Of a DNA stretch of 64,000 nt, positions 26,997 to 55,742 are shown in pieces. The DNA is from a virus (lineage: Duplodnaviria > Caudoviricetes). Numbering within the stretch: the first letter of the stretch is position 1; every line of letters begins with the position of its first letter. The notes under the pieces are model-generated. The model was not told the DNA's origin, did not search any database, and saw only the letters and a program-made list of their open reading frames with translations. Position numbers and translations under genes: made by a program. The stretch lies in the IMG/VR virus record IMGVR_UViG_3300017963_000032, positions 1 to 64,000 of that record. One strand, given 5' to 3'.

Positions 26997-26998
26997 AA

Positions 26999-36086: not shown

Positions 36087-36090
36087 GAAA

Positions 36091-36132: not shown

Positions 36133-36160
36133 ACGTTAAATCAAGTCGGAGGCGAGACAA

Positions 36161-36463: not shown

Positions 36464-36592
36464 GAAAGAACTCATACAAGAAATGAAGGAAAACATCAAA
36501 CCATATGCTTTACCAAGAAGTATTAACAGCAGGAGCAAAGCAGAGCTCGAGAAAACTTATGAAGAAGCTAAGAGACTGGGGTTGACAAAACA

Positions 36593-37721: not shown

Positions 37722-37736
37722 TTGGAGGCGAGATAC

Positions 37737-38183
37737 ATGACAAACGAAATAGAAGGTATCGTAGAGAATGTCAGTCAAAAGACTGGCGGAATCTGCATAG
37801 GTGGAAAGTGGTACAGCAGTACAGACAGAACAAAGAAATTTGTTTTGCAGGCCAACAAAGGAGACAAGGTCAAGATAGAGATTGACGATAAGAACGCAGT
37901 CAACTTCATCAAGACATTGCAAAAGAATTCTAATTCTGGAGGCAATTCACAACCTATGAATGTTCCAGAAGAAAGAGTAGAGACCAACGAAGAGCAAAGA
38001 AAAAGGGTAGTCGAAAACATGGGCAACATCCATAGAGATTGCATGGAAAAGACTATTGAGAATCTTAGCTCAGAGAAGTTTACTTTTATGAAGGAACTTC
38101 CGATAGACAAGAAGTCAGAGCTCATTGGCCAACAGACTAGCACACTTTTTATCCAAGTATGCAAGGCTTTAGGGTACAAATAA
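37737..38183 (+). CDS. Possible OB-fold ssDNA-binding protein
   Basis: N-terminal beta domain plus N/S/G-rich linker; weak. Confidence 0.35.
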   Translation: MTNEIEGIVENVSQKTGGICIGGKWYSSTDRTKKFVLQANKGDKVKIEIDDKNAVNFIKTLQKNSNSGGNSQPMNVPEERVETNEEQRKRVVENMGNIHRDCMEKTIENLSSEKFTFMKELPIDKKSELIGQQTSTLFIQVCKALGYK

Positions 38184-38198
38184 ACGGAGGCGGAAACC

Positions 38199-38456
38199 AT
38201 GGAATTAAAATACAAAGAACTGAACATAAAAGAGAATGATTCAGACGAGACAGCAATAGCAGTATTTGATGGACAGACAGGAGCAAGTATGACCATCAAA
38301 CTTCAGATAAGAGGGGACAAAGAAGAAATCGACAAGTTCTTGAAAGAACACAAGATAACTGCATACAATCAAGTCATCAGTGCAGAGTTCAAGAACAATC
38401 AGAAGACTCTTGCAGAGAGTACAAAAAAACCTGAAGAAGAAAAGAAAGCTGAATGA
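38199..38456 (+). CDS. Hypothetical protein
   Basis: GGAGGCGG RBS. Confidence 0.55.
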   Translation: MELKYKELNIKENDSDETAIAVFDGQTGASMTIKLQIRGDKEEIDKFLKEHKITAYNQVISAEFKNNQKTLAESTKKPEEEKKAE

Positions 38457-38728
38457 ATACTGATAGATACAAAAAGGCTGAAAAACTAATCACTGAAGGG
38501 CAAGTAGTACTAGAGTCAAAAACTCAGAAGGCATTGTACTTCAAAGTCAAATGCTATGATGTAAGAATAGGTATGGAACAGAACAGTTGCACTTGTCATC
38601 ATTACACTTATGATGCAGGATTAAAAAAGAACTGTTCCCATATCATTGCAGCTGAAGCATATTTAGTTTTCCAGTCTTATAAGATTGTGAAAAATGGAAC
38701 CGCTAATAAAAGAAGAAGACCTAAGTAG
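38453..38728 (+). CDS. SWIM Zn-finger protein
   Basis: CTC...CSH. Confidence 0.75.
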   Translation: MNTDRYKKAEKLITEGQVVLESKTQKALYFKVKCYDVRIGMEQNSCTCHHYTYDAGLKKNCSHIIAAEAYLVFQSYKIVKNGTANKRRRPK

Positions 38729-38871
38729 GAAATGCAAAAATTGTTATTATATGAGGGAGCATTTAGAGAATGGGGCTGAACTCCCAGTTGACTGTGAAAG
38801 AAGAGTGAGGACAAATAACCTTGTCACTCCATGCAAAAACAAACCAGTCATAGAAAAAATGTTCAAAACTA

Positions 38872-39312
38872 ATGGAGAAGAAGATGATGAAGAAGATTGA
38901 AGAAGGAGTAGGAGACCTTCAGCAACAGATTCAAGATAATGACAGCTTGATGATTTACAAGAAGCTTCAAGAGAGCAAGAAGTTCAGACGGATGATGGAC
39001 ACACACTTTGATATAAAAGTCAAAGTAGATACCATGGAACCGATAGAGATAACAGATACTGAGAAAGGACAATCCATGGTTCAGATTGGAATGAAGAGAG
39101 GAGTAACAATCAGAGAGAGAAACATTATTGAAAGATTCTTTGCAAGAATATTAATCAGATGTCATGAGATAATCAAAAAATTGGAGGCGAGACATAATGA
39201 CACTACACGAGGAGACTCAGGAACTTCATGTAAATGCAGTGGAGACAAGCACATGCATGATAGGGAAGGAAAGGGAAGAGACAAAGGAAGGCTGGATAAG
39301 CATAAAAAGTAA
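38872..39312 (+). CDS. Hypothetical protein (boundaries uncertain)
   Basis: ORF overlaps neighbours. Confidence 0.35.
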   Translation: MEKKMMKKIEEGVGDLQQQIQDNDSLMIYKKLQESKKFRRMMDTHFDIKVKVDTMEPIEITDTEKGQSMVQIGMKRGVTIRERNIIERFFARILIRCHEIIKKLEARHNDTTRGDSGTSCKCSGDKHMHDREGKGRDKGRLDKHKK

Positions 39313-39457
39313 AGACCTTCACAAGTACAAGAACCACACACTCAAGATAAAAATTATTGTAGAAGAGGACTTAGGAATATTCTGTGTCCACTGCAATACT
39401 AAACTAGAAGAAGAAAAAAAGATGTGCGCCAAGTGCGGGAGGAAAGTGTTACGATGA
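39197..39457 (+). CDS. Hypothetical protein with C-terminal Zn ribbon
   Basis: GGAGGCG RBS; CVHC/CAKC. Confidence 0.5.
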   Translation: MTLHEETQELHVNAVETSTCMIGKEREETKEGWISIKSKDLHKYKNHTLKIKIIVEEDLGIFCVHCNTKLEEEKKMCAKCGRKVLR

Positions 39458-40251
39458 AGATAGGAGTTATAGGTTGCGGAGTTGTTGGAGGTACAATCCT
39501 CACTGGCTATAAAGCTTTAGGTTATGATGTTCTTGGTTATGACCCTTACAAAGATGAATATATAACTACATCTTTTGATGATATAACAAAGTGTGATGTT
39601 TTATTCTTATGTTTACCAACAGTCCCAGATTCTTCAGATAAGATGATTATGAAACCTTTGGATGAAACATTTGAGAAACTAAACGAGAGAGAATACAAGG
39701 GCTTAATAATTCTGAAGTCAACAGTAATTCCCGGTACTACAAGAAAGTATGCCCTTAAATATCAGAAGCTAGATATACTCCATAGCCCGGAATTCTTGAC
39801 AGAAGCAAGAGCAACATTTGATTTCTTCTGCCCTGACAGAATAGTTGTTGGCAGCACAGACAAGTACATCAATGAACAATTCTTTGAGATTCATAAAATA
39901 TTCAACTGTCCAATAATGGAAGTTGATGCAGAAACAAGTGAGCTAGCAAAGTTCATGAGCAATGCTTTCTTTGCAACAAAGGTAAGCTTCGCAAATGAAT
40001 GGAACGAGATTGCTTTACACTACAGAGCAGACTATGATGCTGCAAAGAGAGTTCTTTACACAGACAAAAGAGTTGGAGCTGACCATCTATCCATCAATGA
40101 AGACAGAGCTTACGGTGGAATGTGTTTGCCTAAAGATGTGACACAGATAACCAAGGACTTAAATGACCAAGGGATAACACCATTGCAGCTTGAAGCTACT
40201 GATGATGTCAATGGTAGAACACAGAAATTAATCAAGAGGGATAAACAATGA
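39454..40251 (+). CDS. ugd: UDP-glucose/GDP-mannose dehydrogenase family protein (short form)
   Basis: IGVIGCGVVG; KSTVIPGT; SPEFL; KFMSNAFFATK; YGGMCLPKD. Confidence 0.88.
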   Translation: MKIGVIGCGVVGGTILTGYKALGYDVLGYDPYKDEYITTSFDDITKCDVLFLCLPTVPDSSDKMIMKPLDETFEKLNEREYKGLIILKSTVIPGTTRKYALKYQKLDILHSPEFLTEARATFDFFCPDRIVVGSTDKYINEQFFEIHKIFNCPIMEVDAETSELAKFMSNAFFATKVSFANEWNEIALHYRADYDAAKRVLYTDKRVGADHLSINEDRAYGGMCLPKDVTQITKDLNDQGITPLQLEATDDVNGRTQKLIKRDKQ

Positions 40252-43678: not shown

Positions 43679-44401
43679 ATGAAAGTACCAAAATTCCCAA
43701 GCATAAAAGGTGTTGAATTGTACCTAGTAGGCGGATGCGTGAGAGATTCCCTAATGGGTCAGACTCCAAAAGATTTGGACTATGTTATGATAACAGACAA
43801 GTCTTTCGAAGAAGTCGTAAAGCAAATATCAGAGACACCTAACTGCAAAGTATTCCAAGCTAAGGCAGAGTTCTTAACAATCAGATGCAAGATACAAGAC
43901 CAGATAGTAGACTTAGTCATGCCAAGAACTGAAGAAGGATACTCAGACCATAGAAGGCCAGACGAAGTTAAAGGAACAGATTCTCTATTTGAAGATTCCA
44001 AGAGAAGAGACTTCACTATAAATTCAATGTACATGGACAAAGAAGGAACCATACTTGATTATCATAAAGGAGTGGTTGACCTGAAGAATAAAGTCATCAA
44101 GTGCGTAGGCAACCCAAGGGAAAGATTCCAAGAAGATTACCTAAGAATACTCAGAGCTGTCAGGTTCTCTTGCAGGTTTGGATTCAAAATAGATAAGAGC
44201 ACACAAAATCATATGATTAAATTATCAGAGAGATTAACTGATGTTGAACAGAACAGAGTCAGGGAAGAACTAAACAAATCATTGAAGGCAAATCCTAAGT
44301 GGACTATGAAATACATCGAAGCATTGAACTTATATAAAACATTATCAGAATTAGGATTACATTTTGAGCTTAGCTCTAAGGGGGGAGAAAATGATAAGTA
44401 A
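43679..44401 (+). CDS. cca: Class II tRNA nucleotidyltransferase (CCA/poly(A) polymerase family)
   Basis: VGGCVRD...KDLD; RRDFTIN; EDYLRILRAVRF. Confidence 0.9.
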   Translation: MKVPKFPSIKGVELYLVGGCVRDSLMGQTPKDLDYVMITDKSFEEVVKQISETPNCKVFQAKAEFLTIRCKIQDQIVDLVMPRTEEGYSDHRRPDEVKGTDSLFEDSKRRDFTINSMYMDKEGTILDYHKGVVDLKNKVIKCVGNPRERFQEDYLRILRAVRFSCRFGFKIDKSTQNHMIKLSERLTDVEQNRVREELNKSLKANPKWTMKYIEALNLYKTLSELGLHFELSSKGGENDK

Positions 44402-44825
44402 AGCTATGATGTTTGCATTCGAGAAACATAGAGGACAACTATGTGACGAAGGAAAACCATACATACTGCACCCATTCAAGGTTGCAGATATAGTAAGGCT
44501 AGTCACAGATGATAAAGAAATTATTGCAGCTGCATACCTGCATGATACAATAGAAGATACAGCAACAACTTACGACGAATTAGTTGAAGAGTTCAGCAAG
44601 AGAGTTGCAGACTTAGTGATGGAAGTATCACATGAAGGACAGAAGGATGAAGTAGGATATTATTTTCCTAGATTGAAAACACAAGGAGGAATCATGCTCA
44701 AGTTCGCAGATAGATTATCCAACCTCTCAAGGATGAGCGCTTGGGATGATGGAAGAAAAGAACATTATTTAAGAAGGTCAAGATTTTGGAAAAGGAAACC
44801 CGGGGACAGGTGGGAGAAAAAATGA
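44391..44825 (+). CDS. HD-domain hydrolase (SpoT/MESH1-like)
   Basis: KHRGQ...PYILHP...LHDTIEDT...KFADRLSNL. Confidence 0.88.
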   Translation: MISKAMMFAFEKHRGQLCDEGKPYILHPFKVADIVRLVTDDKEIIAAAYLHDTIEDTATTYDELVEEFSKRVADLVMEVSHEGQKDEVGYYFPRLKTQGGIMLKFADRLSNLSRMSAWDDGRKEHYLRRSRFWKRKPGDRWEKK

Positions 44826-45248: not shown

Positions 45249-45269
45249 GTTGTCATTTTCATGTTGTTC

Positions 45270-45357
45270 GGGTGGCGTAGAATAGGGTTACTTCGCTTGA
45301 AACGAAACCAAAATAGGCTGTAAGAGCCTATTGTCTATACCCTGTTTGATTGTACCC
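45270..45357 (+). ncRNA. Y RNA-like ncRNA 1
   Basis: GGTGGCGTAG-N5-GGTTACTTCG motif; 5'/3' pairing AATAGGGT/ACCCTGTT and GGGT/ACCC; upstream of Ro60. Confidence 0.65.
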
Positions 45358-45374
45358 CCACAACTCATGTTCAT

Positions 45375-45499
45375 GGTGGCGTAGTCGAGAGTTACTTCGA
45401 CTCGTAATCGAGAGGTCGCAGGTTCGAATCCTGTCATGTGCTTCGGCACGTGTAGCTCAGTTTGGTAGAGCGCTAACGTACTCTCGACGACTGTTCCCC
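45375..45499 (+). ncRNA. Y RNA-like ncRNA 2 (YrlA-type tRNA mimic)
   Basis: GTCGAGAGT(T)AC/GTACTCTCGAC stem enclosing anticodon arm, T arm GCAGG-TTCGAAT-CCTGT, tetraloop-closed acceptor stem and D arm. Confidence 0.85.
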
Positions 45500-45538
45500 T
45501 TCATAATCATAAGCACTAAGGTACCAGATTGACAGTAT

Positions 45539-45600
45539 GCGGTGACGTAAACAAGGGATACTTCGTTCCTAAGAAAAGACCCTCGTTGCTTGTTTCCCGC
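45539..45600 (+). ncRNA. Y RNA-like ncRNA 3 (minimal)
   Basis: GGTGACGTAA-N4-GGGATACTTCG variant; GCGG/CCGC closing stem. Confidence 0.55.
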
Positions 45601-45619
45601 ATTCATTATCATAGTCATT

Positions 45620-45733
45620 GGGTGGCGTAGTAAAGAGTTACTTCGGTAAAAAACAAACTTCAAAATTTGTTCAACTGGTTCAAATCCAGAATCCCTTCGG
45701 GGTTTCAAAACGTACTCTTTACGTCCGTTCCCC
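45620..45733 (+). ncRNA. Y RNA-like ncRNA 4 (T arm and closed acceptor stem, no D arm)
   Basis: GTAAAGAGT(T)AC/GTACTCTTTAC stem; CTGG-TTCAAAT-CCAG; AATCCC-TTCG-GGGTTT. Confidence 0.7.
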
Positions 45734-45771
45734 CGGACAATTTAATAAATAAGAACATGAGGTGTTTGAAC

Positions 45772-47319
45772 ATGAGTAAATACAACAAGCCTACTAGAGG
45801 CAAAGATAAGACTGTAAACCACGAAGGAGATGTGGCTTACAAATTGGATAGCAAAACAGAACTGTATTCTACAGTCTGCACATCAATGTTGCAGAACAAG
45901 TTCTACGAGAAAGAAGATGAAACTCTGAATAGAATCAGAACTCTCATCAAGACTACAGACCCAGAGTTTGTGGCTAAGCTAGCAGTGTATGCAAGAGAGA
46001 AGATGTACCTTAGAAGTATACCTTTAGTCCTTGCAGTTGAGCTGGCAAAGGTCCACAACGAGGACAGCATTCTTGGAAGAACTGTTAGCAGAATAGTCCA
46101 AAGGGCTGACGAGATAACAGAGATTCTAGCTTACTACAAAGAAGCTAACAAGGATAACTGGGAGACTGAAAAGAATTCTGGAAAGACAAAGCATCTTGGA
46201 AGATTATCAAAGCAGATAGCTAAAGGTCTGAACTTTTCTTTTAACAAGTTCGACGAGTACCAGTTTGCTAAGTACAACAGAAAGGGCCAAGTTACTTTGA
46301 AGGATGCACTATTCCTAGTTCACCCAAAGGCAAAGAATAAAGAGCAGCAAAAACTGTTTGATAAGATTGTCAATGGAGAACTAAAGACACCTGAAACTTG
46401 GGAAGTTAAGATGAGTGAAGGTGGAAAGGAAGGAGCTGACAAGAAAGAAGTCTGGGAGAAAATGATTAGCTCAGGCAAGATGGGTTACATGGCAATGCTG
46501 AGAAACCTAAGAAACTTCTTGGAAGCTGACGTGAGCCAGAAGCACATGGCTGATGTAGCGCAGACTCTTGCAGACCCTGAGAAAGTTAGAAAGAGCAAGC
46601 AGTTACCATTCAGATTCTTGAGCGCTTACAAAGAGCTGAAAGGAAACAAGAGCTCTAAGGCTACAATGATTTTGAACGCTCTGGAAGAAGGAGTGATTAC
46701 AAGCATTGAGAACTTGAAGGGCTATGATTATAACACAACTGTTTGCGTAGCTTGTGATGTTTCAGGAAGTATGCAGCATTCAATCAGTGACAGAAGCAAG
46801 GTCGAACTTTACGACATTGGATTGCTACTTGGTATGCTATTGCAGTCAAGATGCAAGAGTGTAATCACTGGTATATTCGGAGACACTTGGAAGATTAAAG
46901 CACTTCCTCAAAAGAGCGTCTTGCAGAATGTGATGGACTTGCATAACATCGAAGGAGAAGTTGGTTACTCAACTAACGGGTACAAAGTAATCCAAGACTT
47001 AATCACTAGAAAGGAGAAAGTGGATAAGATTATGATATTCACTGACTGTCAGATGTGGAACAGTTACTCTGGAAGTAGAGGAAGCTTTGCTACTTGTTGG
47101 TCTGAATACAAGAAGATTCATCCAGAAGCAAAACTCTACTTGTTTGATTTGTCAGGTTACGGAAACACTCCTGTATCTGTTAAAGGAGATGGAGTTTACT
47201 TGATTGCAGGATGGAGCGAGAAAGTCTTTGATATGCTAGCTGCAATAGATAAGGGCAGTAATGCAGTGAAGGAGATTGAAAGCATCGACTTGTTCAAGAA
47301 ACCAAGCAAGAAGAAATAG
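45772..47319 (+). CDS. rsr: Ro60/Rsr RNA-binding protein (TROVE + vWA)
   Basis: NHEG..AY; DEYQFAKY; PETWE; YMAMLRNLRN; QLPFRFLSAY; MIDAS DVSGSM; FTDCQ. Start moved to ATG 45772 (GAGGTG RBS) because upstream codons overlap ncRNA 4. Confidence 0.95.
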   Translation: MSKYNKPTRGKDKTVNHEGDVAYKLDSKTELYSTVCTSMLQNKFYEKEDETLNRIRTLIKTTDPEFVAKLAVYAREKMYLRSIPLVLAVELAKVHNEDSILGRTVSRIVQRADEITEILAYYKEANKDNWETEKNSGKTKHLGRLSKQIAKGLNFSFNKFDEYQFAKYNRKGQVTLKDALFLVHPKAKNKEQQKLFDKIVNGELKTPETWEVKMSEGGKEGADKKEVWEKMISSGKMGYMAMLRNLRNFLEADVSQKHMADVAQTLADPEKVRKSKQLPFRFLSAYKELKGNKSSKATMILNALEEGVITSIENLKGYDYNTTVCVACDVSGSMQHSISDRSKVELYDIGLLLGMLLQSRCKSVITGIFGDTWKIKALPQKSVLQNVMDLHNIEGEVGYSTNGYKVIQDLITRKEKVDKIMIFTDCQMWNSYSGSRGSFATCWSEYKKIHPEAKLYLFDLSGYGNTPVSVKGDGVYLIAGWSEKVFDMLAAIDKGSNAVKEIESIDLFKKPSKKK

Positions 47320-47520: not shown

Positions 47521-47605
47521 ACCGAGGTCGGATAGCGGTCAATTCCAAAGGGCTCATGACCCTTCGCTCATCAGAGCTGCGCAGGTTCAATTCCTGCTCT
47601 CGGTA
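47521..47605 (+). tRNA. tRNA-Met(CAT), initiator-like, long variable arm
   Basis: ACCGAGG/TCTCGGT (A1:U72); AAGGG-CTCATGA-CCCTT; variable stem GCTC/GAGC. Confidence 0.85.
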
Positions 47606-47613
47606 TCTTTTAT

Positions 47614-47685
47614 GCCTTCAGAGTGCGTGAGGTAGCACACCTGACTGTTAATCAGGAAGTCCAAGTTCGACTCTTGGTGAGGGCG
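47614..47685 (+). tRNA. tRNA-Asn(GTT)
   Basis: Cloverleaf; CCTGA-CTGTTAA-TCAGG. Confidence 0.9.
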
Positions 47686-47690
47686 TTCAT

Positions 47691-47828
47691 AGGCGGGTGC
47701 CAGAGCCCGGTTGAATGGGCTGGACTTAGGAGCCAAATGGCTTGGTCAAAGGGCCACACTCAAAACCGATAGCTTAGAAATCCAGTGCGGTAGCGCTAAA
47801 CACGTGGGTTCGAATCCCACCCCGCCTA
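47691..47828 (+). tRNA. tRNA-Leu(TAG) with 49-nt intron (47731-47779)
   Basis: CTGGA/TCCAG stem, long variable arm, relaxed BHB at 37/38. Confidence 0.85.
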
Positions 47829-47834
47829 TCAAAT

Positions 47835-47964
47835 GCCGAGGTTGAGCAGCTGGTAGCTCGCTGGTCTGCTGATTAACTCAGCCCAGAGTGGAGTTCCGGG
47901 TTGTTAGCCCAGAGTTGAAAACCAGTTCCCTTGCGGTCTGCGGGTTCGAGTCCCGTCCTCGGCG
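47835..47964 (+). tRNA. tRNA-Ser(GCT) with 48-nt intron (47872-47919)
   Basis: GCCGAGG/CCTCGGC, G73, CTGGT/ACCAG stem, 14-nt variable region. Confidence 0.75.
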
Positions 47965-47968
47965 TTAC

Positions 47969-48041
47969 GGGCAGGTAGCTCTAATGGTAGAGCGGTTGGC
48001 TTGCATCCAACAGGCTTCGGGTTCGAATCCCGACTTGTCCA
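47969..48041 (+). tRNA. tRNA-Ala(TGC)
   Basis: G3:U70 present. Confidence 0.95.
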
Positions 48042-48094
48042 TAAGCTCTCCAGCAAGGATACTGTCAAGTGAGAGTTAAAAAGTCCTTGCGTAT

Positions 48095-48167
48095 GCTGGC
48101 GTGGCCTAATTGGTATGGCAGTTGCCTTGTAAGCAGCCGAATGGGGGTTCGAGTCCCTCCGCCAGCT
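48095..48167 (+). tRNA. tRNA-Thr(TGT)
   Basis: Cloverleaf; U73. Confidence 0.92.
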
Positions 48168-48170
48168 TTC

Positions 48171-48243
48171 GGCACTATGGACAAGCTGGTAAGTCGTCAG
48201 GTTGCAACCCTGAAGAACGAGGGTTCAAGCCCCTCTAGTGCCT
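48171..48243 (+). tRNA. tRNA-Cys(GCA)
   Basis: Cloverleaf; U73. Confidence 0.92.
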
Positions 48244-48268
48244 TAATTCTACCATTTATAAACAAATC

Positions 48269-48319
48269 TCTTACAAAAACGAAAGATTTATATATAAGCT
48301 ATGCTTACTAATATGTAAG
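48269..48319 (+). promoter_or_regulatory. BRE-TATA promoter with CTTAC-N6-GTAAG palindrome
   Basis: Same CTTACAAAAACGAAAGATTTATATA as at 43605; CTTACTAATATGTAAG (48304-48319). Confidence 0.7.
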
Positions 48320-48334
48320 ATGGAGGCGAGCAAT

Positions 48335-48487
48335 ATGAATGACGAACCATGGGCAAAAGGATATGTCAGCCCAACAGTATGCGCTGACGGAGAAGACTCT
48401 CATGAATGGGAGAATACAGTTATGGTAGAAAATGGCTGTATAGAAATACCAGTAAGGCACTGCAAGAAGTGCGGATTTTATATGTAA
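48335..48487 (+). CDS. Small Cys/His protein (50 aa)
   Basis: GGAGGCG RBS; C..HEW...CKKC. Confidence 0.5.
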   Translation: MNDEPWAKGYVSPTVCADGEDSHEWENTVMVENGCIEIPVRHCKKCGFYM

Positions 48488-48504
48488 AAATGGAGGCGAG
48501 AAAT

Positions 48505-49065
48505 ATGAGAAAAACATTATATAAGGAGACGAAAACAACTGGCTGCGAGATGGAAGACGGCAGCGACACAAGAAAGACTGAATCAACTTTGATTTTGGTC
48601 AATGAATCGGAAGAGGAATCCTACCAAGACCACGTGGCTGATGAAGCAGGAAGTCAAGACTACAGTTACCAGTTCAATAACAAAGCAATCATAACTCTTG
48701 AAGATGGAGATTGGGATAAGGTTGCAGACCTTCTTGAAGCTGAAGGCAAGATAGCCAAAGCAGAGAGTGAAGAGTATAATGGATGGACTAACAGAGAGAC
48801 ATGGGCAGTAAAGCTGCACTGGGACAACAACCAAGGAGATTACGAGTCTCTGATTGATAGAACAAGACAGATGAAAAAACAAGGTAAGTCACCTTATAAC
48901 TTAGCATCAGAATTAAAAGAGTATGCTGAAGAAGCATTCAACATGATGTTTGAAGGCCAGAAACTTCCAGAGCAAACAGCACACTTCATCAATGATGTGG
49001 GCAGCCTTTGGAGAGTTAATTGGAAATAGATTGCTGAAGCTTACTGGTCAGAGGTGGAACTATGA
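48505..49065 (+). CDS. Viral protein with YNGWTNRETW motif; in-frame TAG at 49027
   Basis: GGAGGCG RBS; frame continues IAEAYWSEVEL to a TGA overlapping the next ATG. Confidence 0.55.
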
Positions 49066-49403
49066 AAAAGAAAGAGCGGAAGGTTTACGAGGACGAGGCA
49101 AACAACAAGATATTTTTTGACATCAGGAAGTACATGAAGAACTTAACCAACAGCGTGATAGACCAAGATGCAGAAGCTTCATACTATATCCAAAGAGAGA
49201 TAAGCATCCATAGGCTTTGGGATTATCATGAAGGAGAGGTTCTAGAAATCTTGAAGAAAAATCCAGAAGTCACAGAGATATTCAAGGTTGAGAAGATAAA
49301 AGATAGGGGCCATCTCACAACTTATGTGCAGTTCAGAGGAGAAGCGGAAGTCAGCACTGGATATGACAGGATATTCATCAAGAAGATGGAAGTGGTAAAA
49401 TGA
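49062..49403 (+). CDS. Hypothetical protein
   Basis: Coupled ORF. Confidence 0.55.
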   Translation: MKKKERKVYEDEANNKIFFDIRKYMKNLTNSVIDQDAEASYYIQREISIHRLWDYHEGEVLEILKKNPEVTEIFKVEKIKDRGHLTTYVQFRGEAEVSTGYDRIFIKKMEVVK

Positions 49404-50296
49404 ATACTTGGAAGACCTTCAATAAGTATGTTGATTTCCACAAGAAAGGATTGGACTTGGGCTTAGAGCCTTACACTATTGGAGAGCCTGAAGAGACATT
49501 CATAGAGAAATTAGATAACACCTTCGCACACGGCAAAGTCTTTGATATAAATGAAGATGTTAAGGATTTGCTTTTGAGAACTAAAGGGACAAAGGAGATT
49601 GACAAAGTACCTTTTGAGAGTATCTTTATTGATACAGACTTTGATGTTTCAGAGTTCAAGGAGAAGCAAGACAATGATGACATAACAAGCGTTGCAGGAT
49701 TGCTCGTATCTGTGGCCAACAAGGTAGAGATAATAGAGAACAAAGAATATGTGAAGAACTCAACTCTAGACTTGAAGACATTAAGGGGTGCTGAAGGATT
49801 CAAGATATACTGGCTCGGGCTAGACAAAGGAAAGATAGGTTATTGCTTTCACACAATCAACATAGTCAACAAGAACAATCTAGACATGGAGTTTGAGATT
49901 AGCAGCAAGACACCTAAGATAAGAAAGTTCCTTATTAATTTTGTCAGCAACTTCTTGAACTTACTTAACAATCCTCAACCAGACATAGTAATCACAGAAA
50001 GAAAAGCCAACGAAGCAAAGAACAAAAGATTGATTAGACATGGACAGATTCCAATGCCAACTAAAAGTGTTGTGCTCATGATTGGAAAATTAAAGATATA
50101 CCTTGACCAGCTCCGAAGTAATGGGTACATGTCTTACTCTCATAAGTTCTGGGTCAGAGGCCATTGGAGAACTCTTAGAGATGAGGACCGATGGGGAGAA
50201 AAGGTAGGAACAAAATTATGGATTCACCCGTTTGTGAAGGGAAGCGGAATCCTAATTGACAAGAAATACAATGTTACCAAGGAGGCGGAAGCATGA
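49400..50296 (+). CDS. Viral protein with C-terminal VRGHWR motif
   Basis: HKFWVRGHWR motif seen in many phage proteins of unknown function. Confidence 0.6.
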   Translation: MNTWKTFNKYVDFHKKGLDLGLEPYTIGEPEETFIEKLDNTFAHGKVFDINEDVKDLLLRTKGTKEIDKVPFESIFIDTDFDVSEFKEKQDNDDITSVAGLLVSVANKVEIIENKEYVKNSTLDLKTLRGAEGFKIYWLGLDKGKIGYCFHTINIVNKNNLDMEFEISSKTPKIRKFLINFVSNFLNLLNNPQPDIVITERKANEAKNKRLIRHGQIPMPTKSVVLMIGKLKIYLDQLRSNGYMSYSHKFWVRGHWRTLRDEDRWGEKVGTKLWIHPFVKGSGILIDKKYNVTKEAEA

Positions 50297-50559
50297 ATGG
50301 AAAAGAATTATGGATGAGGATATTCAACACAGACTTTGAGGAAGCAGTCTTATCTCATCTAAACTTAGAAAAGAACTTTGAAGATGAAGGAACTGACGAA
50401 GAGAACAAAGAGATTGTAGAGGCTCTTGAAGGAAAAACCTTGCAAGACATGATAGATTATAGGTGTCAATATTTTGGATATGGAATTGATTCAACAGATA
50501 TAAGAGACATGATTGAGCAACTCCAGATAGAAGACATAAAGGAAATAAAAGGGTGGTAA
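50293..50559 (+). CDS. Hypothetical protein
   Basis: GGAGGCGG RBS. Confidence 0.55.
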   Translation: MNGKELWMRIFNTDFEEAVLSHLNLEKNFEDEGTDEENKEIVEALEGKTLQDMIDYRCQYFGYGIDSTDIRDMIEQLQIEDIKEIKGW

Positions 50560-50560
50560 T

Positions 50561-51445
50561 ATGGCAAAAGAAAAATTCAGAGAGAAACTACATCTCTCAC
50601 CAAAGAACAAGAAACAACTTGAAGTTATCAATGAAATTATAGATGAGTACGCAGCAGAAGGTTACAAGCTAACATTAAGGCAGCTTTATTACCAGTTAGT
50701 GTCCAGAGACATAATCCCTAACAAACAATCAGAGTATGCAAAACTTAGCAACTTACTTGTTAAAGGAAGGATGGCTGGTGTTGTTGACTGGGAAGCTATC
50801 GAAGACAGAATCAGAGTACCATTTATTCCTTACTGGGTACATGGAGTTAAGGATGCAATAGATGACACAATCAGTCAGTACAGATTAGACAGGCAAGACG
50901 AACAAGAAGTTTACATAGAACTCTGGGTAGAGAAGGACGCATTGTCAGGAGTGCTGAAGAGAATCACATCACACTATCATATCAATTTGATGGTTAACAG
51001 AGGGTACAGTTCTTGCACTGCAATGCATGATGCATACAAAAGATTCAGAACACAAGCTATAGCCAATGAGAAGAAGATTGTAATACTGTATCTTGGAGAC
51101 CACGACCCAAGCGGTCTGGATATGATTAGAGATATAAGGGACAGGTTATTTGAGTTCGGAGTTGATGTAACAGTCAAACCAATAGGACTTACTATGGCTC
51201 AGATTAAGCAATACAATCCACCACCAAACCCTGCAAAGATTACAGACCCAAGGGCAAAGGATTATATCGAAGAGCACGGAAACACTTCATGGGAAGTTGA
51301 CGCTCTGAATCCTAAAGTCTTGCACCAGTTAGTAAGAACAAATGTCGAAGGCATGATTGACATGGGCTTGTTCGAAGAGATGCTAGAGAAAGAGAAAGAG
51401 CACAAGAAAGAACTGGAGAGACTGCGTGAGGAAAGCAAAAAATGA
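50561..51445 (+). CDS. Topo VI-A/Spo11-like TOPRIM protein
   Basis: TLRQLYYQL; WVEKDAL; RGYSS; YLGDHDPSG; WEVDAL. Confidence 0.8.
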   Translation: MAKEKFREKLHLSPKNKKQLEVINEIIDEYAAEGYKLTLRQLYYQLVSRDIIPNKQSEYAKLSNLLVKGRMAGVVDWEAIEDRIRVPFIPYWVHGVKDAIDDTISQYRLDRQDEQEVYIELWVEKDALSGVLKRITSHYHINLMVNRGYSSCTAMHDAYKRFRTQAIANEKKIVILYLGDHDPSGLDMIRDIRDRLFEFGVDVTVKPIGLTMAQIKQYNPPPNPAKITDPRAKDYIEEHGNTSWEVDALNPKVLHQLVRTNVEGMIDMGLFEEMLEKEKEHKKELERLREESKK

Positions 51446-52227
51446 AGGAGAAGATTAAAGGACTCTGCAAGCAGATAGAGAAAGAAAAAGGAATCAAGAT
51501 ACTATTTGCTGTAGAGAACGGAAGCAGAGCTTGGGGCATGGAGAGTGAAGACTCAGACTATGACATCAGGTTCGTCTATCACAGGGAAGTCAAGGACTAT
51601 CTTTGCCTGAACCCAAGTGATGAAGTAATCAAAGCAAGCTTCGATAAGGAAGGAAACAAAGCTCCAGCTGAAGGATGTTTCTTTGATATTGTAGGATTCG
51701 ATTTGTTCAAGTTCGCAAGGATGTTGAGCAGCTCTAACCCTCAAGTCATTGAATGGCTTTGCACGGACATTGTTTACTTAGGAAAGCAGAACAAAGTGTT
51801 CCAAGAGTATGCAGAGAAGTGCTTCAAGCAAATCAGTTTGTACTATCATTACAAGAGCATGTGCAAGCAGAACTATTTGAAGTATTTAAAGTCAGGCAAT
51901 CTAGTTACATACAAGAAGTATCTATATGCAATGCGAGGATTAATCAACGCAAGGTATGTAGCTAACTTCAAAGTATTGCCGCCTATAAACTTCATTCAAA
52001 CATTGGAGACTCTTGATAAATTACTTCCTTTGTATGTTGTTGAAAGGTTGAAACAGATTGTTGAGCTCAAGAAAGAAGGAAAAGAAAAGGACATCATAGA
52101 GAACGAGACCAAGATAGATAATTACATTGAGGAGTTCTTGAAGGATGACAGCGAAGCTCCAAAAGAGAAGAAGCTTTCAACACAGACAGAGCTCAATCAA
52201 GAAGTACAAAAAATATTGGGGGTGTAA
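51442..52227 (+). CDS. RlaP/YcgL-like Pol-beta superfamily nucleotidyltransferase
   Basis: AVENGSRAWG.ESEDSDYDIRFVY; YYHY..M; KKYLYAMR. Confidence 0.85.
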   Translation: MKEKIKGLCKQIEKEKGIKILFAVENGSRAWGMESEDSDYDIRFVYHREVKDYLCLNPSDEVIKASFDKEGNKAPAEGCFFDIVGFDLFKFARMLSSSNPQVIEWLCTDIVYLGKQNKVFQEYAEKCFKQISLYYHYKSMCKQNYLKYLKSGNLVTYKKYLYAMRGLINARYVANFKVLPPINFIQTLETLDKLLPLYVVERLKQIVELKKEGKEKDIIENETKIDNYIEEFLKDDSEAPKEKKLSTQTELNQEVQKILGV

Positions 52228-52229
52228 GG

Positions 52230-52601
52230 ATGGTTGAAATATTGTTTAAACAATTCGTGATAGTGCCTAAGAGACCTAAGATGTCTCCCGGTAAGATTGC
52301 AAGCCAAGTAGCTCATGCAACATTCATGGCACTTGAGAATCAGAAGGAACTCAATAAGCATCAAACAGATATTATAGACACTTGGAAACATAACGGGATG
52401 TGTGTCATAGTATTGCAATGCAAGAGCTCATCACAGTTGATGGGGATTGCTAAGTACTTGGACCAATGGAAGATTCCAAACCATCTTTACATTGATGAAG
52501 GGATGACAGAGGTTGAGATGGGAACTCCTACAGCTCTTGCAACAGGCGTACTTCCTTTAGATAAACATTGGATGCTTGGTCAGTTGGAGTTGTTAAAATG
52601 A
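52230..52601 (+). CDS. pth2: Peptidyl-tRNA hydrolase, archaeal/eukaryotic Pth2 type
   Basis: KMSPGKIASQVAHA; DEGMTEV..GTPTA. Confidence 0.88.
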   Translation: MVEILFKQFVIVPKRPKMSPGKIASQVAHATFMALENQKELNKHQTDIIDTWKHNGMCVIVLQCKSSSQLMGIAKYLDQWKIPNHLYIDEGMTEVEMGTPTALATGVLPLDKHWMLGQLELLK

Positions 52602-52867
52602 TACTGGCAATAGACCCTGATGGGATAATCAGATTAATGTCGGACTGGAGTTTAAGATACAATATAGGGTCTGACTGGACTATCATTAAACGATTTGAGA
52701 TGCCAAAGATGGGCAGGAAAACTCACACTACAAAGCTTGATGAGTACATCCAAGTCCAAAGAGAAACCAAAGAGAAACTAGAGAAAGAGATTAAAGAGCG
52801 AGAGAAGAACATAAAGTTACTCGAAGCATTGAAACAGGAGGCAGAAAAACATGCAAAGAAAAAGTAG
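52598..52867 (+). CDS. Hypothetical coiled-coil protein
   Basis: Coupled ORF. Confidence 0.5.
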   Translation: MILAIDPDGIIRLMSDWSLRYNIGSDWTIIKRFEMPKMGRKTHTTKLDEYIQVQRETKEKLEKEIKEREKNIKLLEALKQEAEKHAKKK

Positions 52868-52984
52868 AATATTCACAAACGCTGAGTTAGAAGTGATAGC
52901 TCAGAAAGAGGCAGGCAAGTACAAAGACACAAATGGCTTGTTTGCAGGTAGGATAAAACCTAAAGTCAAGGAGTTGCTCAAAGA

Positions 52985-53374
52985 ATGGGTACCAAAAAAG
53001 AAAAAGCTGGAAAAGTTAATCAAGTAATCTGGATGGCTCCCCTTGTTATTTTATCTTTATTCGGAGTGATTTTCCTAGGATTATTGATTCATGAAGCAAC
53101 ACACGTAGCTCAGAGCAAGGAGCCTATAAGTATATGTTATGATTTTCAACAAGCTACAATGGCTCATGTTTGGCATGATACTACAGCTTGGGCTTTAGAA
53201 AATAATCATACAAGAGCTGCAACTCTGGCCGAGTTTCATGACTGGCAGATATACACAGAGAAGTGGGCGTATAATATTCAAGGATTTTTATTGGCTATAT
53301 TGCCATTCTTACTAGGAATAAGCACGACAATGTGCTGGAGGAAATACAATGAGCGGAAAAGAAAAGAAGATTGA
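52985..53374 (+). CDS. Membrane protein with HExxH (M50-like peptidase?)
   Basis: LLIHEATHV inside hydrophobic helix; start uncertain. Confidence 0.5.
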   Translation: MGTKKEKAGKVNQVIWMAPLVILSLFGVIFLGLLIHEATHVAQSKEPISICYDFQQATMAHVWHDTTAWALENNHTRAATLAEFHDWQIYTEKWAYNIQGFLLAILPFLLGISTTMCWRKYNERKRKED

Positions 53375-53514
53375 GAAGGTCACAGTCAGGGAATTGATTC
53401 ATATGCTACTTGATTACCCTAATGACTGGGAAGTTATTATAAGGAGCAAAGGAGGCAACAGGTTATCCGGGGCCACAATCAATGTAAAAGAGCCAGAAGG
53501 ATTAGCTTGTTTGT

Positions 53515-53700
53515 TTGGATAAAATGAGAGCGAGATTCCATAAGCAAAGTTGGAGGAGTCCAGCATACAAGTATGAATTGTTTAAGATATTATTCCATAG
53601 ACATTCTTACATCAGTCCAGATAAGATAGCTTATTCATTCGAGCTTGTGATATTTGGATATGAATTGCACTTAGAGATACTCAGACCAAAACCAAAATAA
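53515..53700 (+). CDS. Hypothetical protein
   Basis: Short ORF. Confidence 0.4.
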   Translation: MDKMRARFHKQSWRSPAYKYELFKILFHRHSYISPDKIAYSFELVIFGYELHLEILRPKPK

Positions 53701-53895
53701 CCAAAACATTTAAATATATGTAAGAGTTTCTCGCAAATTATGAGTACCGTAATTTGGAAAAGGGATAGAGAACAGGGCATCGGGATAGTCGATGTGCCGT
53801 TTCAATATCATCAGTGATTCCAGAGCTGCGGTCAAGACCTTCTAAAATTTTATTCAACCCCTCGAATCGTTTTGTATCGCAGTTCTAATTTATAT

Positions 53896-53967
53896 GCCCC
53901 TATGGTGTAGCAGCAATCACACTCGATTTTCGGTCGAGTAACTTGGGTGCGAGTCCCAATGGGGGTG
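53896..53967 (+). tRNA. tRNA-Glu(TTC)
   Basis: CTCGA-TTTTCGG-TCGAG; atypical D loop and TGCGAGT T loop. Confidence 0.8.
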
Positions 53968-53971
53968 TTTC

Positions 53972-54045
53972 GGGCATGTGGTCTAATCTGGTAGGTCACT
54001 TGGCTTACATCCAAGAAGGTGCAGGTTCAAATCCTGTCATGCCCA
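53972..54045 (+). tRNA. tRNA-Val(TAC)
   Basis: Cloverleaf; A73. Confidence 0.92.
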
Positions 54046-54150
54046 TCCAGCGCTGAGCGGAGAAGCAGGTTCGAGTCCTGTCAGCTTCAGATGAGTGCGC
54101 ACATAAAATATCTGAAGATGTGGTGTATTGGGAGAGCATACCGCTTTATT
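54046..54150 (+). ncRNA. Circularly permuted tRNA-like element (3' half precedes 5' half)
   Basis: AGCGG-AGAA-T arm-CAGCTTC-A ... GAAGATG-TG-D arm-A-CCGCT; halves pair as acceptor (6/7) and anticodon (5/5) stems. Confidence 0.7.
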
Positions 54151-54222
54151 GGGGTATTGGTGTAATGTGTAGCATCCGTGCCTTGGACGCACGAGACAGA
54201 GGTTCGATTCCTCTATGCCCCA
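54151..54222 (+). tRNA. tRNA-Pro(TGG)
   Basis: Cloverleaf. Confidence 0.9.
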
Positions 54223-54227
54223 TAAAT

Positions 54228-54298
54228 GCCTGTGTGATGTAATGGCAACATACATGCCTGTCCAGCATGAACCTCGGGTTCGATTCCCGACACGGGCG
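54228..54298 (+). tRNA. tRNA-Asp(GTC)
   Basis: Cloverleaf; G73. Confidence 0.92.
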
Positions 54299-54301
54299 TA
54301 C

Positions 54302-54412
54302 GGTGCTGTGGCGCAACTGGTGAGCGCATCCGGCTGATAAGGAGCGTGCAGAGCTTATATGCACAGTTGCGAAGAGTCTGGAAGGCTAAGGGTTCAAGTC
54401 CCTTCAGCACCA
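54302..54412 (+). tRNA. tRNA-Ile(GAT) with about 37-nt intron (54340-54376)
   Basis: TCCGG/CTGGA stem; BHB central helix imperfect. Confidence 0.8.
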
Positions 54413-54417
54413 TTCAT

Positions 54418-54525
54418 AGGCGTGTAGTCTAACGGACAGGACTCTTGGCTTCTATGCAGTGCATGGCTAGGAAGAAGTCATGTCGAAGAGACCAAGGAAT
54501 CTGGGTTCAAATCCCGGCACGCCTA
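54418..54525 (+). tRNA. tRNA-Arg(TCT) with 36-nt intron (54455-54490)
   Basis: BHB helix CTTC/GAAG perfect. Confidence 0.9.
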
Positions 54526-54529
54526 TTAC

Positions 54530-54612
54530 GAGCAGGTCGCATAATCTGGTATTGCACTGGACTTTTAATCCAGAGCCATTAGGCATCGAGGGTTCAAATC
54601 CCTTCCTGCTCA
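54530..54612 (+). tRNA. tRNA-Lys(TTT) with long variable arm
   Basis: CTGGA-CTTTTAA-TCCAG; variable stem GCC-ATTA-GGC. Confidence 0.85.
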
Positions 54613-54616
54613 TCAC

Positions 54617-54691
54617 AGCCCCGTAGTGTAGATAGGACAATCATCTTAGACTTTGAATCTAGGGACGGCGGTTCGAATCCGCCCGGGGCTA
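54617..54691 (+). tRNA. tRNA-Gln(TTG)
   Basis: A1:U72 archaeal Gln signature. Confidence 0.92.
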
Positions 54692-54695
54692 TCAT

Positions 54696-54776
54696 GGTGC
54701 AGTTGGTGTAAGGGTTATCATAGCACGGAAGACTGTGACTCTTCAGGACCGGGTTCGAGTCCCGGATTGCACCCCA
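54696..54776 (+). tRNA. tRNA-His(GTG) with encoded G-1, C73 and CCA
   Basis: GAAGA-CTGTGAC-TCTTC; long D loop. Confidence 0.88.
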
Positions 54777-54777
54777 T

Positions 54778-54849
54778 GGGATTATAGCTTAACCGGGAGA
54801 GCACCTCGCTGAAGACGAGAAGGTCCGAGTTCAAATCTCGGTAATCCCA
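54778..54849 (+). tRNA. tRNA-Phe(GAA)
   Basis: Cloverleaf. Confidence 0.92.
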
Positions 54850-54915
54850 TTAAAAGAAGAGAAGAAGAAAAGGGTTCCCCCCGGACCCCCCTCCCAAAAG
54901 AAGAAGAGAAGAAAA

Positions 54916-55413
54916 ATGGACTACGCAATTTTCAGAAAGACCCTGTCAAAGGAGGAGTTCTTTGGCAAGTGGACTAGGGATGATTTTGCTAGCGCAAGCG
55001 ATGCAGACAAAGAGAAGGGATATAATGATTATGTTGTGAAGAGCATTGTATTTCAGAGGGATGGTTTTAAATGTCAGAATGTGAACTGCGAGCATCCACA
55101 CAGTGGATTAACTCTTCACCATATAAAACATCAAAGGAACGGGGGAAAGACAACAGTAAGGAACTGTATAACAATTTGTTTAAGATGTCATGAGTTGTTT
55201 AACAAGAAGGCCATAGGCCTAACGTTCGCTGACAGACCAGAGCTGCCAGCTCACGTAAGGAACAGGACTTTTAAGATTAACAAGGACAACAGTATTAATT
55301 GGAAACAAGTTAGAGCGGAAGGAAAGAAGATAAGAAAACAGAACAAAGAGCATCATGGTTATAGGATTAGCTGGGAGATGATGCTTAAACTAATCAGATT
55401 TTTGAAACTTTAA
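54916..55413 (+). CDS. HNH endonuclease inside tRNA cluster
   Basis: RDGFKCQ...LTLHHI...GG...NCITICLRCH. Confidence 0.88.
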   Translation: MDYAIFRKTLSKEEFFGKWTRDDFASASDADKEKGYNDYVVKSIVFQRDGFKCQNVNCEHPHSGLTLHHIKHQRNGGKTTVRNCITICLRCHELFNKKAIGLTFADRPELPAHVRNRTFKINKDNSINWKQVRAEGKKIRKQNKEHHGYRISWEMMLKLIRFLKL

Positions 55414-55414
55414 T

Positions 55415-55487
55415 GCGTCCATATCCTAATCTGGCAGGGAACTCGGCTTCCACCCGAGGTATGCGGGTTCAAATCCCGCTGGGCGCA
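55415..55487 (+). tRNA. tRNA-Gly(TCC)
   Basis: Cloverleaf; A73. Confidence 0.92.
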
Positions 55488-55491
55488 TCAA

Positions 55492-55562
55492 CTCCTCTTG
55501 GTGTAAGGGCTGCATAACTGGCTGTAACCCAGCAGGACTGAGTTCGACTCTCAGAGAGGAGA
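55492..55562 (+). tRNA. tRNA-Tyr(GTA), archaeal type
   Basis: C1:G72, short variable loop. Confidence 0.9.
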
Positions 55563-55610
55563 TACATTTAAATATGAGTGTACATTACTTGGTCTACACT
55601 CAATATTAAA

Positions 55611-55742
55611 GGGAGCGTAGTGTAACGGCACCACGTTGGACTCCAGATTCTAGGGTAGAGTTTAACACCCTCCGCCCAAAGAATACCCCTCGGATAACAA
55701 AGGAGAAACCCAAAGATGCTGGTTCGAATCCGGCCGTTCCCA
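55611..55742 (+). tRNA. tRNA-Trp(CCA) with 61-nt intron (55647-55707)
   Basis: BHB helix CTCC/GGAG with 3-nt bulges. Confidence 0.9.

Follow-up and report, generated by a model that had tools for sequence, protein, structure and literature searches.

Why should a virus carry exactly one transfer RNA (tRNA) gene for each of the 20 amino acids? The question is raised by two tRNA gene arrays at positions 47521-55742 of the first 64 kb (64,000 nucleotides, hereafter the window) of IMG/VR record IMGVR_UViG_3300017963_000032, a viral genome of 79,464 bp that has direct terminal repeats and is rated complete. A first-pass annotation of the window had listed 20 tRNA genes and proposed that such a one-per-synthetase pattern fits selection to supply or protect a substrate for every aminoacyl-tRNA synthetase better than simple compensation of codon bias. 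We find that the one-each pattern is real and needs selection for breadth, and we favor, at a probability of roughly 55%, another explanation for it, namely that the genes form a lean tRNA supply kit for decoding, which is tuned to the viral codons and kept broad as an insurance against tRNA shortage or damage.

Twenty tRNA genes without redundancy

ARAGORN in its default mode reports only 16 tRNAs, and the Rfam tRNA model places 18 above its cut-off, each of them inside 47521-55742, with no hit in the final 15 kb. When introns are allowed, ARAGORN returns from the whole genome the 20 genes that had been listed before plus one extra call (Thr-CGU, discussed below). Taken together with Rfam and with splicing at position 37/38, these searches bear out the earlier list, i.e., 20 conventional genes, one per amino acid, with the anticodons given there, including UAG for Leu, and neither Rfam nor ARAGORN with introns detects a further isoacceptor anywhere in the genome. 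Seven genes lie at 47521-48243, in the order Met, Asn, Leu, Ser, Ala, Thr, Cys, and 13 at 53896-55742, in the order Glu, Val, Pro, Asp, Ile, Arg, Lys, Gln, His, Phe, Gly, Tyr, Trp. No gene is a duplicate of another, as pairwise identities reach 74% at most, and if 20 genes were drawn from 46 archaeal anticodon species the chance of obtaining 20 different amino acids would be P = 1.4e-7.

The genes for Leu, Ser, Ile, Arg and Trp contain introns of 36-61 nucleotides, all five at the canonical position 37/38. We scanned them for the bulge-helix-bulge motif, defined as a 4-bp helix between two 3-nucleotide bulges, each cleaved behind its second base, and the central helices formed 4, 4, 3, 3 and 2 of the four pairs (16/20 positions), with a relaxed motif in Ile; unconstrained folding of the precursor tRNAs was uninformative. 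Splicing at 37/38 yields Leu-UAG, Ser-GCU, Ile-GAU, Arg-UCU and Trp-CCA. The 'Leu-UAA' called by ARAGORN is an artefact, as the program placed the intron inside the anticodon, and splicing at 37/38 gives UAG in the loop CUUAGGA. The neighboring Ile and Arg introns are 68% identical and have a common 3' end, CGAAGAG, which pairs perfectly with the Arg anticodon loop and poorly with the Ile loop.

Virus copies in other samples are 99.995-100% identical to the present one and are therefore uninformative on variation. On other contigs from the same metagenomes we found a tRNA-Leu gene, aligned to window 47697-47818, with identical exons and an untouched bulge-helix-bulge core, whereas the interior of its intron differs from that of the virus by at least 12 substitutions and indels. 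Contigs of the two source metagenomes also carry tRNA genes with 81-89% identity to the viral Asn, Thr, Glu, Asp and Gln genes. Conservation of the Leu exons against divergence of the intron indicates purifying selection and is to be expected of a spliced and selected gene. The tRNA-Leu on these contigs could be the gene of the host or of a sister virus, and could thus offer a lead to the host.

The elements by which synthetases identify their tRNAs are in place, with G3:U70 in Ala, G-1:C73 in His, a class I tRNA-Tyr with C1:G72, and long variable arms together with A73 and G73 in Leu and Ser, respectively; like the conserved Leu exons, they speak for working genes. Along with the introns at 37/38 and A1:U72 in the initiator, the Ala, His and Tyr features are archaeal hallmarks, and the viral genes are of the archaeal type both by their introns and by their Tyr and initiator features. 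The viral CAU gene carries A1:U72, A73 and the sequence GGG-CUCAUGA-CCC. We searched five archaeal genomes for GGGCTCATRACCC and compared the viral gene with their tRNAs carrying GGGCTCATAACCC; in each genome one match was a CAU tRNA that starts with AGCGGGG and ends with CCCCGCTA, the archaeal initiator. The signature of the viral Met gene thus also marks the single AGCGGGG...CCCCGCUA tRNA of all five genomes; one of them (G803) contains a second match, at which ARAGORN calls no tRNA. Judged by this signature, the viral Met gene is of the initiator type, and the set consists of 19 elongators and one initiator.

The anticodons follow a simple wobble pattern, with U34 for family boxes and NNR codons and G34 for NNY codons. 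Each single family-box tRNA, namely Ala, Gly, Pro, Thr, Val and Leu(CUN), has U34. As had been noted before, decoders for UUR, UCN, CGN and AUA are missing.

Several individual tRNA genes show unusual features. Hairpins of 13-14 nucleotides occupy the variable regions of Met (47565-47578) and Lys (54573-54586), which is unusual for both isotypes, and in a related Lys gene on a contig of a third metagenome (run X3) about nine of the insert bases, i.e., most of the insert, are missing. A purine at tRNA position 37 is the rule; the anticodon loop of tRNA-Asp (54262-54268) has the pyrimidine C at this position.

Decoding, breadth and the rival explanations

To relate the anticodons to codon use, we took codon counts from 89 plus-strand reading frames, 23,243 codons in total. 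With U34 reading two ways, the anticodon with the largest share of viral codons is present in 10 of the 12 amino acids for which there is a choice (Ala, Gly, Pro, Thr, Glu, Gln, Lys, Arg, Ser and Ile). Arg-UCU reads AGA/AGG, which make up 92% of Arg codons, the AGY codons of Ser account for 46% against 30% and 24% for the alternatives, and the choice in Ile covers 52% against 48%. Val and Leu are exceptions under two-way reading, and they too carry the best choice if U34 reads four ways (CUN 54% vs UUR 46%), which brings the fit to 12/12. Since the choice of anticodon follows the viral codon share, decoding is favored over a role of the tRNAs as synthetase substrates.

The DNA itself shows how the genes are built, what they encode, how they fit the codons and what surrounds them, and a pathway for the products can be proposed from this. 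Each dense cluster would probably be transcribed as one precursor, which host RNase P and RNase Z would cut, while excision of the five introns would fall to the splicing endonuclease and RtcB of the host; the relaxed motif of Ile predicts an endonuclease of broad specificity. The viral CCA-adding enzyme would finish the 3' ends, and would be needed because 19 of the 20 genes, all except tRNA-His, lack an encoded CCA. Host synthetases would then charge the products, and these would be used as decoders, with one broad-reading anticodon per amino acid, fitted to the A/U-ending codons of the virus, plus the initiator. In this way, viral tRNAs may top up or replace host tRNAs when the latter become limiting during infection. 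Because the genes are embedded among CCA/HD, RlaP, Pth2, Ro60 and Y-RNA-like genes, damage to or depletion of tRNAs, by host RNases or by host shut-off, appears more likely as the driver than codon mismatch alone.

A number of observations weigh against a supply kit for decoding. Under strict wobble 74% of viral codons are within reach of the set, a share that rises to 90% at most with four-way U34, and 11 sense codons (AUA, UUA, UUG, UCN and CGN), or 10.2% of viral codons, are never readable. The unreadable codons amount to 48% of Ile (AUA), 46% of Leu (UUA/UUG) and 54% of Ser (UCN), the virus does not avoid them, and the codon fit is equal in structural and other genes. The initiator signature of the CAU gene moreover implies that an elongator tRNA-Met is missing from the set. 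We found no RtcB, Rnl2-type ligase or splicing endonuclease in the genome, and the five intron-bearing tRNAs therefore need intact host splicing enzymes. No RNA dataset is listed among the public sequencing runs that hold the virus, and we infer expression and charging, and likewise what would cause a tRNA shortage. Finally, a codon mismatch or a tRNA-cutting host system remains postulated, as the host searches described below gave no name.

The set is not autonomous and cannot replace the host tRNA pool. Organelles and Mollicutes possess 'superwobble' sets, in which each family box has a single U34 tRNA, NNY codons are served by G34 and every sense codon is readable. The viral set likewise has U34 in each box and no redundancy, but leaves 11 sense codons unread, and thus works more like a supplement than like a complete decoding system.

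Three other explanations compete with a supply kit that is insured against tRNA loss. Plain codon-usage compensation, according to which the virus would be richer in A/U-ending codons than its host, RNA damage would have no role and the repair genes would serve other ends, is possible, although we consider it rather unlikely. It would account for U34 or G34 throughout, for the presence of the best-reading anticodon in 10-12 of 12 cases and for the match of Arg-UCU to AGA/AGG, and the same trend toward A-ending codons has been described for the tRNAs of the archaeal virus HGTV-1 (PMC13532342). However, compensation predicts tRNAs only where virus and host differ, and not the single-choice Trp, Cys, His, Phe, Tyr, Asn and Asp genes or an initiator; it leaves AUA, the commonest Ile codon, uncovered and the tight linkage to CCA/HD, RlaP, Pth2 and Ro60 unexplained, and it rests on an assumed difference in codon use between virus and host. 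The role put forward in the first-pass annotation, in which the tRNAs would occupy or protect the 20 synthetases or mute a starvation signal, we judge to be very unlikely. That part of the proposal which describes the pattern stands: it is non-random, there is exactly one gene per amino acid, and the initiator in the Met slot satisfies the methionyl-tRNA synthetase and not elongation, so that one-each holds for synthetases and not for decoding jobs. The retained identity elements would also suit such a role, but they are equally required for decoding. A preference for the substrate role over codon matching is not supported, as this role does not predict an anticodon choice that follows viral codon use, and other arrays of Ro60-bearing viruses add second or third decoders for Leu, Ser, Arg and Ile; in the literature examined, we found no such role of viral tRNAs.

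A passenger cassette, i.e., a mobile tRNA cluster that was picked up recently, spread with the aid of the HNH gene and confers little benefit, seems improbable to us as well. An HNH gene does lie within the second array, archaeal tRNA clusters have been linked to mobile elements and TROVE genes (PMC6333295), the nearest terminase relatives are devoid of tRNAs up to 10 kb on each side of the terminase, and Ro60 and the CCA enzyme seem to be of bacterial or phage origin. Against this, the set shows no redundancy, pseudogene or missing isotype, unlike most mobile clusters (PMC6333295), its anticodons fit the codons of the very virus that carries it, the tRNAs are unlike those of the compared HGTV-1 and phage arrays (identity ~0.5-0.75), and exons are conserved where introns diverge.

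Virus, relatives and known systems

The virus encodes tailed-virus genes, including a large terminase and a portal fused to a Mu-F domain, as well as PCNA. The top named match of its terminase is the haloarchaeal virus HGTV-1 with 30.5% identity, followed, among matches in genomes, by contigs of archaeal metagenome-assembled genomes (MAGs) from Methanosarcinales, Bathyarchaeota, Aenigmatarchaeota and Nitrososphaerales. In public sequencing runs, its DNA is present in sediment and seawater metagenomes. On the strength of the terminase matches, PCNA, the archaeal tRNA hallmarks and the occurrence in sediment and seawater, we conclude from sequence evidence that this is a tailed virus of an uncultured, non-halophilic (marine-sediment) archaeon. 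A BLAST search with the first tRNA cluster against 401 sampled genomes from the phylum of the Bathyarchaeota MAG gave a 30-nucleotide match only, and the same search against 401 genomes from the phylum of the Methanosarcinales MAG gave only tRNA-Ala matches of ~75% identity. The five archaeal MAGs with related terminases yielded no match, no homologue of the viral PCNA exceeded 35% identity, and the viral Met tRNA as query produced chance matches only, at sites without tRNA genes. Elsewhere in the window, one open reading frame of 3200 codons (6779-16381) lies in the presumed tail region, and a sugar-metabolism block at 23164-40251 holds at least three glycosyltransferases, a phosphomannomutase, a mannose-6-phosphate isomerase-like protein and a UDP-glucose/GDP-mannose dehydrogenase.

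The terminase alone identified no close relatives in IMG/VR, a terminase profile found short contigs only, at ≤35% identity, and a megablast search of the island that contains the arrays against deposited phages returned nothing. The nearest terminases are 44-50% identical and lie on contigs of 18-45 kb. Four of these relatives were readable, and they have no tRNA within up to 10 kb on each side of the terminase gene, a span that holds most of the 20 tRNA genes in the present virus; for this reason, the island looks like an acquisition of this lineage. More distant terminase relatives on contigs of 60-70 kb have no comparable array. On one of them (L169), ARAGORN makes four intron-type calls, at most one of which is supported by Rfam (29.6 bits).

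Larger arrays are found through Ro60. Among the 21 IMG/VR viruses whose Ro60 comes closest, eight carry 11-36 tRNAs; in these records, sets of 25-34 genes serve 17-19 amino acids and have no introns. The surplus genes fall mainly to Leu, Ser, Arg, Ile and Lys, and such additions in multi-box amino acids again favor a decoding role. The comparison with relatives therefore had a mixed outcome for the first-pass annotation, with no tRNAs near the terminase in the nearest terminase relatives and larger, redundant arrays in the Ro60-linked records. Among the sequences compared, broad amino-acid coverage is the rule for large viral arrays, and the strict one-each economy is peculiar to the present virus. 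Identities between its tRNAs and those of HGTV-1 or phages (0.5-0.75) are no better than between different isotypes, and thus give no sign of a common origin of the arrays. One of the contigs with a related Ro60, L172, is phage-like, 59 kb long and 29% in G+C; its Ro60 is 61% identical to the viral one, and just downstream (11830-18508) are 26 intron-less tRNA genes for 19 amino acids, Met being the one that is missing.

The literature examined names HGTV-1 (Hagravirus, Halomagnusviridae) as the archaeal virus richest in tRNA genes, with 34-36 for 19 or 20 amino acids; it combines them with RtcB, a TROVE protein and a CCA enzyme (PMC8651126). Both viruses are archaeal tailed viruses in which a large tRNA set covering all or all but one of the amino acids occurs with TROVE and a CCA enzyme. 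In contrast to the present 79-kb sediment virus, HGTV-1 is a 144-kb halovirus with a redundant set (four Leu, four Ser, three Arg and three Thr by ARAGORN) and pseudogenes; it has one intron-bearing tRNA gene where the present virus has five, and encodes its own RtcB and Rnl2 ligases where we found no ligase. HGTV-1 is the best named match of both proteins, but with identities of 30.5% in the terminase and 34% in Ro60, the present virus probably belongs to a family other than Halomagnusviridae.

Viral tRNA gene clusters have been defined by Morgado and Vicente as holding at least 15 tRNA genes at a density of at least two per kb. The present locus, with 20 genes in 8.2 kb or 2.4 per kb, falls within this definition; strictly, a 5.6-kb protein-coding gap divides it into two clusters of seven genes in 0.72 kb and 13 genes in 1.85 kb. 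A 2019 survey reported eight viral clusters with all 20 isotypes, in genomes of at least 72 kb, for example that of Xanthomonas phage XacN1 (PMC6409571; PMC5852040), and included no archaeal virus with a tRNA cluster besides HGTV-1 (PMC6409571). The clusters of Morgado and Vicente (2019) are mostly from bacteriophages, with intron-less tRNAs of the bacterial type and usually several isoacceptors, whereas the present set is of the archaeal type and non-redundant. In Halobacteria and Methanobacteria, tRNA clusters are linked to mobile elements and 20 of 29 occur with a TROVE gene; nearly all of them have pseudogenes, and only one has all 20 isotypes (PMC6333295). The viral locus resembles these clusters in its archaeal-type tRNAs and TROVE gene, but they are chromosomal or plasmid-borne with Leu and Ser duplicated, whereas the present one is viral, free of pseudogenes and adjoined by genes for the CCA enzyme, RlaP and Pth2. 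In jumbo phages, the combination of tRNAs, RlaP, CCA enzyme, PTH2 and TROVE has been interpreted as a response to host defences that target tRNAs (Iyer et al. 2021, PMC7824862). The present virus has this toolkit in common with them, but jumbo phages exceed 200 kb, infect bacteria and combine RlaP with RNA ligases, of which we found none here.

Viral clusters of 20 isotypes, HGTV-1 itself and TROVE-linked archaeal tRNA clusters were thus already known; the present virus is set apart by its small genome, the setting in a sediment archaeon, the strict non-redundancy, the five introns, an initiator as its only tRNA-Met and the absence of a ligase. If the host assignment is right, the strategy of combining tRNA supply, RNA repair and Ro60 is also found in a far smaller virus that infects non-halophilic archaea of sediments, at one gene per amino acid. 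A non-redundant, intron-bearing and ligase-free set leads to predictions on the dependence on host enzymes, on which codons depend on the host, and on breadth versus codon fit.

The RNA-repair island and permuted tRNA-shaped elements

Both arrays lie inside a 12-kb island that also holds the CCA-adding enzyme and HD domain, a Y-RNA-like array, Ro60, RlaP, Pth2 and an HNH gene (Table 1).

Table 1. Features of the tRNA and RNA-repair island, in window coordinates
Feature	Position	Strand	Evidence and remarks
Class II CCA-adding enzyme (43679-44401) + HD domain (44364-44825)	43679..44825	+	Pfam PolyA_pol 7.1e-32, PolyA_pol_RNAbd, HD_4 1.6e-15
Y-RNA-like array, four repeats GGTGGCGTAG..GTTACTTCG (family D1)	45253..45700	+	Directly upstream of Ro60
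Ro60/Rsr (TROVE + vWA)	45667..47319	+	Pfam TROVE 2.4e-38
tRNA-Met(CAU), initiator type	47521..47606	+	Rfam 48 bits; 13-nt hairpin in variable region
tRNA-Asn(GUU)	47614..47686	+	ARAGORN, Rfam 56 bits
tRNA-Leu(UAG), class II, intron 47731-47779 (49 nt)	47691..47828	+	ARAGORN intron mode, bulge-helix-bulge scan
tRNA-Ser(GCU), class II, intron 47872-47919 (48 nt)	47835..47964	+	ARAGORN intron mode; central helix 3/4
tRNA-Ala(UGC), G3:U70	47969..48041	+	ARAGORN, Rfam 64.5 bits
tRNA-Thr(UGU)	48095..48167	+	ARAGORN, Rfam 64.4 bits
tRNA-Cys(GCA)	48171..48243	+	ARAGORN, Rfam 64.9 bits
294-residue protein beside RlaP	50561-51445		No Pfam match; confident model, pLDDT 95.7
RlaP nucleotidyltransferase (RNA-repair associated)	51442..52227	+	Pfam RlaP 3.2e-52
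Peptidyl-tRNA hydrolase Pth2	52230..52601	+	Pfam PTH2 1.2e-22
tRNA-Glu(UUC)	53896..53968	+	ARAGORN, Rfam 49.5 bits
tRNA-Val(UAC)	53972..54045	+	ARAGORN, Rfam 65.2 bits
Circularly permuted tRNA-shaped element, 105 bp, between Val and Pro	54046..54150	+	3' half, linker, 5' half
tRNA-Pro(UGG)	54151..54223	+	ARAGORN, Rfam 59.9 bits
tRNA-Asp(GUC), C37	54228..54299	+	ARAGORN, Rfam 56.4 bits
tRNA-Ile(GAU), intron 54340-54376 (37 nt)	54302..54412	+	Rfam 58.5 bits; relaxed bulge-helix-bulge, 2/4 pairs
tRNA-Arg(UCU), intron 54455-54490 (36 nt)	54418..54525	+	Rfam 51.2 bits; perfect 4-bp central helix CUUC/GAAG
tRNA-Lys(UUU), 14-nt hairpin in variable region	54530..54612	+	ARAGORN, Rfam
tRNA-Gln(UUG)	54617..54691	+	ARAGORN, Rfam 55 bits
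tRNA-His(GUG), encoded G-1 opposite C73, encoded CCA	54696..54776	+	ARAGORN, Rfam
tRNA-Phe(GAA)	54778..54850	+	ARAGORN, Rfam 66.3 bits
HNH endonuclease gene, inside second array	54916..55413	+	Pfam HNH 7.1e-07
tRNA-Gly(UCC)	55415..55488	+	ARAGORN, Rfam 61.7 bits
tRNA-Tyr(GUA), class I, C1:G72 (archaeal/eukaryal type)	55492..55562	+	ARAGORN, Rfam
tRNA-Trp(CCA), intron 55647-55707 (61 nt)	55611..55742	+	Rfam 44.1 bits; central helix CUCC/GGAG 4/4
nt, nucleotides; pLDDT, predicted local distance difference test score.

The CCA-adding enzyme, located 3 kb upstream of the arrays, also matches the PHROG family of tRNA nucleotidyltransferases (1.2e-54). The enzyme and the HD domain occupy two frames with a 38-nucleotide overlap, which may represent a frameshift, a programmed shift or two separate genes. 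Archaea use a class I CCA-adding enzyme; the viral one belongs to class II, the bacterial type. Between the end of Ro60 and tRNA-Met downstream of it lie 201 bp, so that a TROVE gene directly adjoins the tRNA cluster. The protein is 34% identical to the TROVE protein of HGTV-1 and 55-65% identical to Ro60 of Bacteroidota and phage-like contigs, which suggests a transfer of Ro60 between viruses of two domains. The presence of archaeal-type tRNAs together with Ro60 and CCA enzymes that look bacterial or phage-like would document gene flow between such viruses.

We considered the 294-residue protein beside RlaP as a candidate for the expected RNA ligase and rejected it, as its model resembles a topoisomerase VI-A/Spo11-like protein with winged-helix and Toprim domains. 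A sequence search of solved structures with this protein gave nothing, and its family is very large (8077 representatives at E≤0.001). A motif that resembles an archaeal promoter with B recognition element and TATA box (BRE-TATA), AAAG[AC]TTTA[TA]AT, precedes units of the island at 43617, 45233, 47320, 48282 and 55809, and one of these promoter-like boxes lies 200 bp upstream of the first array; with two mismatches allowed, the full 12-mer is not enriched across the window (18 found, 13 expected).

In addition to the 20 conventional genes, and outside their count, the locus contains two permuted elements of tRNA shape. One is the second repeat of the Y-RNA-like array, in which an anticodon arm (CGU), a T arm, a UUCG-capped hairpin and a D arm follow each other in the order of a permuted tRNA. 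The extra Thr-CGU call of ARAGORN (45369-45442) falls here, and we rejected it as an ordinary tRNA, since it scores 22.6 bits, has no proper D arm and overlaps a YrlA-like match. The top YrlA match reaches 43.8 bits, whereas the gathering score is 69, and we therefore describe the array as resembling Y RNAs and not as a curated Y RNA.

The other element separates tRNA-Val and tRNA-Pro. ARAGORN finds a cloverleaf in it only after circular permutation, which was the case for none of 3000 shuffled sequences and none of 410 other real windows, and it has no Rfam match at E≤1. Joining of its ends at 37/38 produces the loop UUUAUUG with the anticodon UAU, which corresponds to the codon AUA. The bulge-helix-bulge of the joined form is poor, however, and nucleotide 37 is U. 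It is tempting to speculate that the element is matured, by end-joining at a relaxed bulge-helix-bulge and cuts by RNase P and RNase Z, into a working AUA-reading tRNA, but we regard this as improbable. Were it the case, AUA, the commonest Ile codon of the virus and the largest gap in its set, would gain a decoder, and this would be the first report of a permuted tRNA gene from a virus and an example of viral use of the archaeal splicing machinery for tRNA assembly.

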